This document shows, one piece after another, positions 18,001-21,000 of a stretch of 46,854 nt of DNA. The DNA comes from a virus (taxonomy: Duplodnaviria; Heunggongvirae; Uroviricota; Caudoviricetes): positions 1 through 46,854 of the IMG/VR virus record IMGVR_UViG_2548876964_000013. One strand, written 5' to 3'. Made by a program: the position numbers. Each line of letters starts with the position of its first letter. Position 1 is the stretch's first letter.

Positions 18001-21000
18001 TGGTCCAGATACCCGCACCATCACGGTATGCTGTGGTGTGGTTACCTTCCTTTTCATCCAGAAACTGGTCGAGGATTTCAGGCGCAGAAGCACCTGCGGC
18101 AATCAGCGCCAGAACGGCAGCCGATAAACCATAGCGGAGTTTCCTGCTCATCAGCTTACTCTCCCCGTGCCGCCTTACGCCTGTCCTCTCTGATTTTGAA
18201 ATACAGGTTCGTCAGGTACGTCAGCAGACCAAACAGCAGACTCCCCAGCACGCCTATTGCCGCCCACTGAGACGGGGAAACCCTGTCCAGCAACTGCAGG
18301 AACCAGTAGCCCGTTCCCACCGCTGACGTGGTGTATGACACACCTGTTGTGATTTTTTCCATCTGGTTCATACCCCGCCTCCCGCAATCCGGAAGCTCAC
18401 AACAATAAAAAAGACCACCGGCACACACCGATGGTCCCTGACGCATGCTTACATCATCATGTCGCTGTCCGGTGTGGGGTCACCGCTATCTGAAGCACTC
18501 CCCTCACCCGCGATGCCTTCCGGCTCCGGAGCTGCCGGTGCGCCCAGCAGTTCATCCAGAATGGCATCCACTTCTGCATCAAGACGCGCTTCCAGGTTAT
18601 GGCGAAGTTTCTGTTTCAGTGCGCTCCGGACTTCTTCAGAGCGCAGGACGTCCTTCACTGCCTCTGCAGTGACCAGGGATGTAATTTCTGACATGGGATT
18701 TTCTCGTCGAAAGGTGTGATTAAGAAAGTTGCCGCTAAATGAGCGGCTCTTCGGGTTTGCTTCCGGCTGACTGACTGGCGCTGATTTTCTCAGCGGCCCT
18801 TTTGTCAATCTGTCTGCGCCAGAAGTCACGCATGGCCCTGTACCCACCCGAAAGGAGATACAGCACACAGACCACCGTACAGAAGTACAGCATTAACTGG
18901 TTCAGAAATGTCATAATTTCTTTCCGTTATTGTTGACAATAAGAACTGTTTTCATTAAAAACCAGAGTACGAAAGTATCGTTCCTTTATTTTTTCTCCAT
19001 AGGTATCACCACCGCCAGCGTCCATTCCTGTCGCTGGCGGTTTTTTTTATCATGCCGCAGTGTCTGTGCTGTTCACTTCCACCGCAATGCTGTCAATCAG
19101 CACCGGGTAAGTCGCACCTCTGGTAATGTCTGTCACATGCAGTTTATCCGCCGCAAAGGCACTGACCGGTGACTGCGTCAGCGTGAACGGTGTGCCATCC
19201 TGACCATCAATAACCGGCGTCACCTGAAGGCTGTTATTCCCGGCAAAGCGGAAAGCCAGCGTATGCCATTCGTTATCAAATGCGCCAAAGCTTCCCAGTT
19301 TCAGGTTGTTTGTCGCCACTTTCGCATTGTGGTACATCACATTCAGGTCTTTTGCATCTGTCTGGATGTAGAACGCTGCCAGCAGGTTATTCCCCCCGAC
19401 TCCGGTCAGGGCAACGCCCTGTGGCAGTGAAGATACCGGCCAGTAAAACGCCATAACATACTGGTTCGCAGCCAGCGCTCCCGAAACCTTAAAGCGGCAG
19501 CGAATCTGCCCCCCTTTCTGTAACAGAGCCGCACCGTTGCCCGCGGCGTACTCCAGCACCCAGCTGCTTTTACCGGCTTCCTTGGTCAGCTTCACTGCCT
19601 TACCTCCGGTTCCCTCCGCATCGCTGACCACTTCTGCCCTGCCGCCACTGGCTGACCATCCCTGTACTTTCAGGCTTCCCTCTGACTCGCTGACAAGGTA
19701 AGAGAGCAGTGTTGTGACGCCTGTGGCTTCTGCACCGGAAGGCGATGACGGGCGCACCTCTGATACTGTCGATGATGCCCCCGCGTTTAGCGCCACTCTT
19801 CCCGCATGGCGCAAAATCGCCGTTGCCAGACGGTCGGAAATAATCCCGCGGCGAGCCCATGAACTGAAATGGCTCGCCCTGTCCTGTGACGTCCAGGTGG
19901 CTGAGCTGTCACGCCATTTCGAACCGTAATACCCGATACCCGGAATGTCCGGGTCTTCTTCCGGTTTGTTCGTCGGCACATTCACCCCGTTCTCATCGGT
20001 CATGAACGGTACGAAATGGATATTCTTTTCCGTTTTGTTTTTGTAGCTGCCGTACACCGTCTGGTACGAGGATTCGTTCTTCTGCTTCCAGAAATACGTC
20101 GTATCTCCACAGATCCAGGGAACACCGCAGCAGAGCCACCAACGCACTGACCTGCCATATCCGTCAGGTCTGCACGGAATTTATCAACCAGCGCACCAAA
20201 CTGTGCTGCGTGATTTCCGGGCGTGCCGTCAAAATCAAATTCCCCCTGCATCCACACCACGGCAAACAGCACATTTTTCGGGTTCTTCTTCAGTGCTGCT
20301 TTTGTTCGACCGATAAGGTCCTTATACAGCGGCTTGTCCACACCCCAGCGGGTTGAATTCTCCGAGGCACCACTCGCGTCACTGTATGTGCCATCGGCTC
20401 CGGTGGTGAACGCTGAACCACCACGACAGCACGGAACCAGCAGAATGCCCGCATTCGCCGGTATAAACGGCAGCAGTTTTTTGGCGATATGCAGCCCCTG
20501 CCCCACGGTTCCGTACTGCCCCTTTGACAGGTCCGCTTTCGGATGGTTAAGACGGCTCATGTCCTGCACATCATGCAGACAATGGTCCGCCGGAATGATG
20601 TCGTTATATTTGCATACTGCACCGCCCGGTGTCACCGTACTGCGACGCGCTAACTGTTTAATACGTGGATCAGGGCTGTCGAATGTATCCGGCAATGGCA
20701 GTCCCTCACCGTATGACATACCATTGGACTGACCAGCAAGCGCGATCACATAGTAATATTCTGGCGCAACAGAAGGCGCTGAGGTCGTCGGACGGTTGCC
20801 TGGCTCCTCTGGTGATGAGATGCTCCCCTCACTCACAACTGGCTGGATGAACTCCGCACCATAACCAGCTGTCGAAATCAGCGCACTACCATAAGGCTGC
20901 CACCCTTCCTTCAGTTTTTGAGTTATTCGTTTCGCAAGGTCTGACGGCGACGCCGCCCTGACAACATCATAGTGTTTAAATGCCATGAATCCTCCCGGCC

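Follow-up and report, generated by a model that had tools for sequence, protein, structure and literature searches.

The viral record IMGVR_UViG_2548876964_000013 of IMG/VR, analysed here at its full length of 46,854 nt (the window), is a Shiga toxin (Stx) 2a prophage that is 100% identical over 6 kb to Escherichia coli O111:H8 strains. Its late operon runs on the minus strand in the order Q, three tRNAs, stx2A, stx2B, a frameshifted NanS-p/SASA esterase gene, DUF1378, DUF826, holin and lysozyme. In the slot that separates the DUF1378 gene from the esterase stop codon, the plus strand holds a compact unit with the parts of a small RNA (sRNA) gene, which resembles the Hfq-dependent sRNA Esr41 of enterohaemorrhagic E. 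coli (EHEC) O157. A preliminary description of this DNA had placed a plus-strand terminator with a GC stem and T8 at 19012..19048, with TTGACA about 80 nt upstream. Reading the sequence showed these coordinates to be accurate, the stem beginning 74 nt past the end of TTGACA. The description was also right that the unit is opposed to its neighbours, all of which are on the minus strand, and that no plus-strand open reading frame (ORF) explains it: an 80-aa ORF with a TTG start, called mechanically at 18930-19172, reads through the terminator and has no Pfam match. The slot and its borders contain the following features.

18933-18938, plus strand: perfect -35 hexamer TTGACA, read from the sequence; shared by 17 of 18 unique alleles, Esr41 among them.
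18956-18961, plus strand: -10 hexamer TAAAAA, 17-nt spacer from the -35 box; four of six matches to TATAAT, without the final T.
18966-19048, plus strand: predicted primary transcript of ~80-83 nt, its 5′ end placed at A18966/G18967 by analogy with Esr41.
18967-18978, plus strand: 5′ hairpin GUAC-GAAA-GUAU in the minimum-free-energy fold.
18993-19000, plus strand: putative seed core UUCUCCAU, single-stranded; invariant in 13 of 13 aligned RNA alleles including Esr41.
19002-19010, plus strand: small hairpin GGU-AUC-ACC, from folding; the Esr41 counterpart is GGGG-UAUU-CCCU, and 15 of 16 sequences retain the two G-C pairs.
19011-19041, plus strand: terminator hairpin, from sequence and fold; 9 bp (CCGCCAGCG/CGCUGGCGG) plus a closing A-U, 11-nt loop.
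19041-19048, plus strand: U8 tail, end of the intrinsic terminator and expected Hfq-binding 3′ end; T7-T8 in all alleles.
19050-20147, minus strand: C-terminal ORF (DUF6645) of the frameshifted NanS-p/SASA esterase gene, its stop codon 2 nt from the U-tract end.
19050-19052, minus strand: esterase stop codon.
18735-18914, minus strand: DUF1378 gene, next after the slot when read in the late direction; 19 nt lie between its start codon and the -35 box.

The TAAAAA of the window aligns with TTAAAA or TAGAAA in other alleles and with TATATA in Esr41, whose 5′ end is known from an expression construct. About 45 U-rich and largely unpaired nucleotides separate the -10 box from the terminator hairpin, and UUCUCCAU forms one single-stranded stretch with the U run directly upstream of it. 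At the DNA level, the terminator arms are CCGCCAGCG (19012-19020) and CGCTGGCGG (19032-19040). With its U8 tail, a stem of the -20 kcal/mol class and the U-rich UUUAUUUUUU upstream, the 3′ end has the make-up of an Hfq-type sRNA terminator. In minus-strand reading, what comes after the hairpin is UGGUGAUACC and not a U run, so the terminator is one-directional. The RNA as a whole (18966-19048, 83 nt) folds at -23 kcal/mol (z = -5.2), a stability that none of 200 shuffled sequences reached.

A consensus scanner saw just the inner 5-bp stem and no promoter at the site, the former because it limits loops to 3-8 nt and the latter because it accepts only -10 boxes that end in T. Single hexamers or hairpins occur frequently, and the scanner returned eight terminator-like sites in 3 kb against 2.5 expected, as might be anticipated if the hairpin and TTGACA had come together by chance. 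Given the fold statistics above, and a unit that is homologous to Esr41 and kept whole in hundreds of genomes (see below), we consider such a coincidence extremely improbable. A 7-2-7 palindrome, TTATTGT-TG-ACAATAA (18927-18942), overlaps the -35 hexamer and is operator-like; it is degraded in SCU-type alleles and absent in Esr41, and may be due to chance.

Esr41 (EcOnc14; RF02676) is encoded on the SpLE1/OI-43 island of EHEC O157 and was described as binding Hfq and repressing chuA, cirA and bfr through direct pairing (Waters 2017). At gathering thresholds, Rfam matched STnc100, AsxR, two isrK/C4 pairs and tRNAs across the whole window and nothing at the candidate site. At permissive thresholds, the best match at the site was Esr41 (18972-19048; 29.5 bits, E = 0.0017 for 701 nt searched). 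The Rfam search proposed in the preliminary description thus points to a relative, but with a score under the gathering threshold of 102 bits; the genuine Esr41 of Sakai SpLE1 (L003:2048-2121) scores 108.6 bits in RF02676. We also searched a 1.97 Mb database with an nhmmer profile built from 17 unique candidate alleles, Esr41 being left out. The profile matched the Esr41 locus (L003:2012-2123, profile positions 12-134) with E = 5e-5, compared with E values of at least 0.19 for ∼200 decoy loci carrying the same 15-nt motif. From the -35 box to the U tract, the candidate and Esr41 are 64% identical over 118 columns, and none of 2000 shuffles reached this alignment score. They have in common TTGACAA, AACT.TTTT, TTTTCTCCAT, GGTAT, CCGCC.GC ... 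GCTGGCG, and T7-8 followed by ATCA. BLAST by itself gave no link between the two, and our own covariance model matches the candidate at 18964-19048.

The order of modules is likewise that of Esr41: a 5′ hairpin, a U-rich strand with UUCUCCAU, a small hairpin, a CCGCC.GC/GCUGGCG terminator and U7-8. Differences lie in the first ∼25 nt and directly after the core, where GGGG in Esr41 corresponds to AGGU in the candidate. The 5′ hairpin of Esr41 (GAUGCU-CUA-GGCAUC) is in another register, and other alleles have GAUGU-CGAAA-GCAUC or ACAUC. Esr41 proper is a single-copy gene of SpLE1, adjoining and downstream of iha and at least 95% conserved in 695 genomes, whereas the candidate sits in the late region of Stx phages, typically with two copies per genome. 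Judged by these comparisons, the candidate is very probably a diverged paralogue of Esr41. Since Esr41 itself carries no annotation from the Prokaryotic Genome Annotation Pipeline (PGAP), the missing non-coding RNA annotation at the candidate site is uninformative.

The 128-nt element was present in 919 of 5426 complete E. coli genomes (median of two copies, up to seven) and in 306 phage records, mostly Stx2a, Stx1a and Stx2c phages. In all ten of ten divergent copies (71-94% identity), it lies in one orientation in the order DUF826, DUF1378, element and esterase. Sakai carries a copy at NC_002695.2 1272083-1272209 (minus strand) and a second one. The copy in Sakai Sp5 equals the window allele minus one T; in that prophage (L004 4504-5813), an IS629 interrupts the esterase ∼270 bp beyond the sRNA terminator, and the element is intact. 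Elements kept across alleles of 69-100% identity are the -35 hexamer, the -10 region, CGAAAG (5′ hairpin), the terminator core and the octamer TTCTCCAT, whereas variation is found near the transcription start, in the terminator loop and in the spacer that follows the seed. The sole exception to the -35 hexamer among the 18 unique alleles, TTGACT, is found in O157:H7 493/89 (L254 397-531). In this strain the flanks (DUF1378 gene and 3′ end of the esterase gene) match the window at 97-99% identity, yet identity drops to 69% in the RNA, whose modules persist, a pattern that looks like cassette replacement of the sRNA body rather than neutral drift.

In a model-fitted alignment, 94.7% of stem cells are paired; for the terminator hairpin, the figure is 94% across 16 sequences. 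Stem changes seen by eye are C-G to U-A in the 2018-166 type, G-C to U-G, and a two-sided G-C to A-U in Esr41. A position-by-position 5′ hairpin was rejected, as registers differ among alleles; a hairpin is present in most of them. Whole-collection scans with TTTTCTCCATN{1,2}GGTAT were too unspecific: the matches in genome contigs were all chance and the viral ones mostly so, with 17 IMG/VR loci being real and the remainder serving as decoys.

Conservation could in principle reflect a function of the minus strand, with the hairpin as a 3′ stabiliser of the esterase mRNA and GG(U/A)GG-N8-9-AUGGAGAA as the translation start of a mini-ORF. The hairpin indeed stands directly after the esterase stop codon, and a Shine–Dalgarno (SD)-like box followed by AUGGAGAA occurs in every allele. 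However, the mini-ORFs differ (MEKK-stop in the window, MEKM-stop in Esr41, ∼24 aa in SCU alleles), a 32-aa ORF at 19025-18927 lacks a Pfam match and is truncated in the 2018-166 type, and the conserved -35 and -10 boxes and the plus-only U tract would be left unexplained. With Esr41 a proven plus-sense sRNA besides, we regard a minus-strand function as very unlikely. Small ORFs on either strand were also dismissed, having no Pfam match and no conservation.

The position of the unit, antisense between the esterase stop and the holin/lysis genes, is also that of PasA, PasC and EcOnc51/52. PasA (NC_011601 743499-743415) and PasC (1290909-1290832) of enteropathogenic E. coli (EPEC) E2348/69 were found by RIL-seq (mapping of RNA interactions through ligation and sequencing) on Hfq, are seen on northern blots and depend on Hfq for stability; their EHEC relatives EcOnc51 (Sakai Sp12) and EcOnc52 (Sp4) come from Hfq-CRAC (cross-linking and analysis of cDNA). 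The esterase-PasA/PasC-holin synteny has been described by Zhu, Shabalina and Storz (2026 preprint), who also found Rfam matches to Esr41 to be frequent near PasD; those matches may be the candidate element. Like the candidate, PasC, EcOnc52 and an esterase-adjacent unit downstream of PasA have a TTGACA promoter, a length of ∼80 nt, a terminator abutting the esterase stop and the stem core GCCAGCG/CGCUGGC. PasA proper has its own terminator with the stem GCCAGCAC, ∼150 nt from the esterase stop, and differs from the candidate in RNA body and seed (GCCAGCACCU). Compared with PasA, PasC and EcOnc52, the candidate showed no significant similarity beyond the terminator: nhmmer gave an E value of 8.9, confined to the terminator, and covariance-model E values were 1.8 (PasC) and 2.4 (EcOnc52-like unit). 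Nor is the candidate one of the Pas variants in Zhu et al., which are a few bases off the EPEC copies or have the PasA 3′ end in common. EcOnc52-type alleles are present in 677 genomes, so that the Esr41-like allele is at least as common.

In prophage PP2 of EPEC E2348/69 (L001 2366-2600, minus strand), two sRNA units stand in tandem, PasA proper and then the EcOnc52-like unit adjoining the esterase stop. Pearl Mizrahi et al. reported a 'minor' 236-nt PasA 3′ end (743264), which falls at the terminator of this second unit, and the 236-nt band is probably read-through. EPEC PP4 has no esterase slot.

Other sRNAs of EHEC prophages differ from the candidate in position or origin. The anti-sRNAs AsxR/AgvB/EcOnc03, together with STnc100/EcOnc27 at the moron site, are likewise short and convergent in the late region of the same phage, and like the candidate they fall into families in which the 3′ modules are conserved and the 5′ parts vary. 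They occupy another slot (stxB-esterase), however, and are unrelated in sequence, AsxR and AgvB being sponges of host sRNAs. In the window they form a convergent pair downstream of stx2B, with AsxR at 21139-21191 (plus strand, 88 bits) and STnc100/EcOnc27 at 21193-21398 (minus strand, 208 bits), and Sakai Sp5 is alike. StxS and HnrS (EcOnc10-12) are further EHEC prophage sRNAs found on Hfq. StxS is a processed PR'-tR' transcript, unlike the candidate. HnrS is also multicopy and blocks a ribosome-binding site (RBS); it was excluded as the identity of the candidate by its position, since in Sp9/10/12 it lies ∼5 kb farther along the late region.

The recurrence of convergent sRNA genes in the late region, as with AsxR and STnc100 in the window, would also suit an element that acts mainly in cis, through convergent transcription and an antisense RNA on the late transcript (by RNase III or by interference), insulating the lysis genes from stx/nanS-p read-through, with trans targets being secondary. 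Complementarity between the RNA and the esterase-DUF1378 spacer is complete (-51.9 kcal/mol), and PasA forms RIL-seq chimeras with esterase mRNAs. Yet Esr41 retains the modules although SpLE1 contains no late operon, and invariance is confined to a short seed and does not extend over the entire antisense stretch. We therefore think it improbable that cis action is the main role, although the complementarity makes a cis-antisense effect of the proposed sRNA on the late transcript possible during induction.

The seed itself can be compared with experimental work on Esr41. Seed 1 of Esr41, UUCUCCAUGGG, was validated against chuA and cirA by compensatory mutations. According to the primers in Table EV8 of Waters 2017, Esr41-M1 changes GGG to CUC immediately 3′ of UUCUCCAU, chuA-M1 is the compensatory CUC-to-GAG change, and Esr41-M2, for bfr, lies within UCCCUCCGC. 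The candidate has the identical core UUCUCCAU, followed by AGG instead of GGG; sister alleles have GGG. At the site of the bfr seed UCCCUCCGC, the candidate reads CACCACCGC, and the predicted pairing with bfr is lost. UUCUCCAU is complementary to AUGGAGAA at the SD region of chuA, and the core of every allele pairs with AUGGAGAA. In Sakai, chuA has the RBS CCUCAUGGAGAAUCGCUAUG and the leader UUUUCCUCAUGGAGAAUCGCUAUG, so that Esr41 covers the SD region with UUCUCCAUGGGG. On chuA, the window allele is predicted to pair with AUGGAGAA and three more bases across a one-base bulge. GGG sister alleles and the 493/89 allele (GAUUCUCCAUGA) pair 11-12 bases, that of 493/89 perfectly over 12. A scan across the window for phage mRNA targets gave the trivial antisense site alone.

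Several results weigh against an active Esr41-like sRNA. The published transcript lists consulted, which include an Hfq dataset of the kind named as a check in the preliminary description, contain no entry at the site. It is absent from the 63 Hfq-CRAC sRNA candidates of Tree 2014 and from the eight Sp5 entries of that study; its expected position there is near 1271946-1272072. Sp5 carries a near-identical sequence, and EcOnc52 in the equivalent Sp4 slot was detected in the same study, whereas the candidate was not. The CLASH (cross-linking, ligation and sequencing of hybrids) tables of Waters 2017 contain no hybrids at the corresponding coordinates. RNA-seq of EDL933 (Han 2017) lists no candidate downstream of z1466 or z3342, and places Esr014/015 between stx2B and z1466. 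Nor is the site in the table of Stx-phage sRNAs by Sy and Tree 2021, which includes sRNA110 (Gruber and Sperandio 2015), a possible counterpart of the candidate. A literature search by sequence string found no match. On the side of the sequence, the RF02676 score falls far short of the family threshold, and the -10 box lacks the conserved last T, as does the TATATA of Esr41. Outside the 8-nt core, the flanks of the window allele pair with chuA no better than random flanks, and its predicted bfr duplex is no better than shuffles, seed 2 (UCCCUCCGC) not being kept. The count of stem covariation has no significance, shuffles doing equally well, because the alleles are too similar.

The lack of transcript entries could mean that O157 laboratory cultures express the gene at a low level, in certain conditions or not at all. 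Another reading is that the unit is a relic of an Esr41-type gene, silent or very weakly expressed in Stx2a/O157-type prophages, and conserved only on account of prophage youth and frequent recombination. The absence from three Sakai/EDL933 transcript catalogues and the imperfect -10 box fit with this, as does an RNA region not more conserved than the adjoining DUF1378 gene. A relic accounts less well for promoter, seed and terminator persisting at 69% identity while the rest of the RNA changes, or for a presence in 919 genomes, often in several copies; moreover, Esr41 has a similar promoter and is found on Hfq in abundance. Overall, we take a relic to be a possible but rather unlikely explanation.

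Taken together, the unit is a real, conserved sRNA-gene-like element that is best read as an unannotated Esr41 paralogue in the PasA/PasC slot of Stx phages. The preliminary description's reading of a plus-strand Hfq-type sRNA gene thus gains comparative backing from the Esr41 homology, the fold, the seed core and the shared slot. We consider it reasonably likely that this is a self-contained, ∼80-nt Esr41-like sRNA gene convergent with the Stx2a late operon, whose transcription, Hfq binding and targets we infer. It would consist of a sigma-70 promoter (TTGACA, 17 nt, TAAAAA), an RNA of ∼80 nt and a strong one-directional terminator with U8, and the arrangement of 5′ hairpin, U-rich strand, small hairpin and terminator with poly-U would be that of a standard Hfq-binding module. 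In a lysogen, the RNA would be made from its own promoter and then bound by Hfq. With UUCUCCAU, comprising the anti-SD CUCC and neighbouring bases, it could pair with the ribosome-binding regions of trans-encoded mRNAs and repress their translation. This mode of action is modelled on Esr41 at chuA and cirA, and we do not claim a target list.

More speculatively, the esterase/lysis junction might be an exchangeable sRNA slot that receives Esr41-like, PasA, PasC or EcOnc52-like genes with a common promoter layout and terminator and different seeds, the Esr41 of SpLE1 being an escaped copy and the Esr41-like allele of Stx2a phages acting on the chuA RBS beside AsxR. We give this whole scheme only a modest chance of being correct. 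If it were true, a toxin phage would tune haem uptake from two sides, given that AsxR, which de-represses chuS, is encoded 2 kb away.

If expressed, the candidate would be a further regulatory RNA that the Shiga-toxin phage itself brings along. About one-sixth of complete E. coli genomes contain the element, often as multiple copies, and it is missing from current annotation and from the Rfam Esr41 family. In Stx2a phages, the PasA/PasC slot is usually filled, by a different allele. Esr41, until now an orphan of one island, would gain an origin in phages and a set of naturally occurring seed variants, which could help to sort its relevant targets among iron and haem uptake, the locus of enterocyte effacement and motility.

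Additional observations concern the rest of the window. The esterase (19050-20986, minus strand) consists of two overlapping ORFs, 20000-20986 (DUF1737 and SASA) and 19050-20147 (DUF6645), and PGAP labels the identical gene in O111:H8 08-4347 as a frameshifted pseudogene. The covariance model of the candidate has a weak match at 23217-23289 (minus strand, E = 0.18), in the Q-tRNA-Ile interval where StxS (the PR'-tR' transcript) is placed, with an equivalent weak match in Sakai Sp5 at L004:533-605; the match at 23217-23289 is probably mere terminator resemblance. Two isrK and C4 antisense-RNA pairs on the plus strand, at 32665-32852 and 41438-41620, lie ∼8.8 kb apart, which suggests either a duplicated segment or two antirepressor/immunity-type modules. 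Close to the window end, at 45655-45729 on the plus strand, is a tRNA-Arg (CCT), which may be the host argW attachment site and mark the prophage border.

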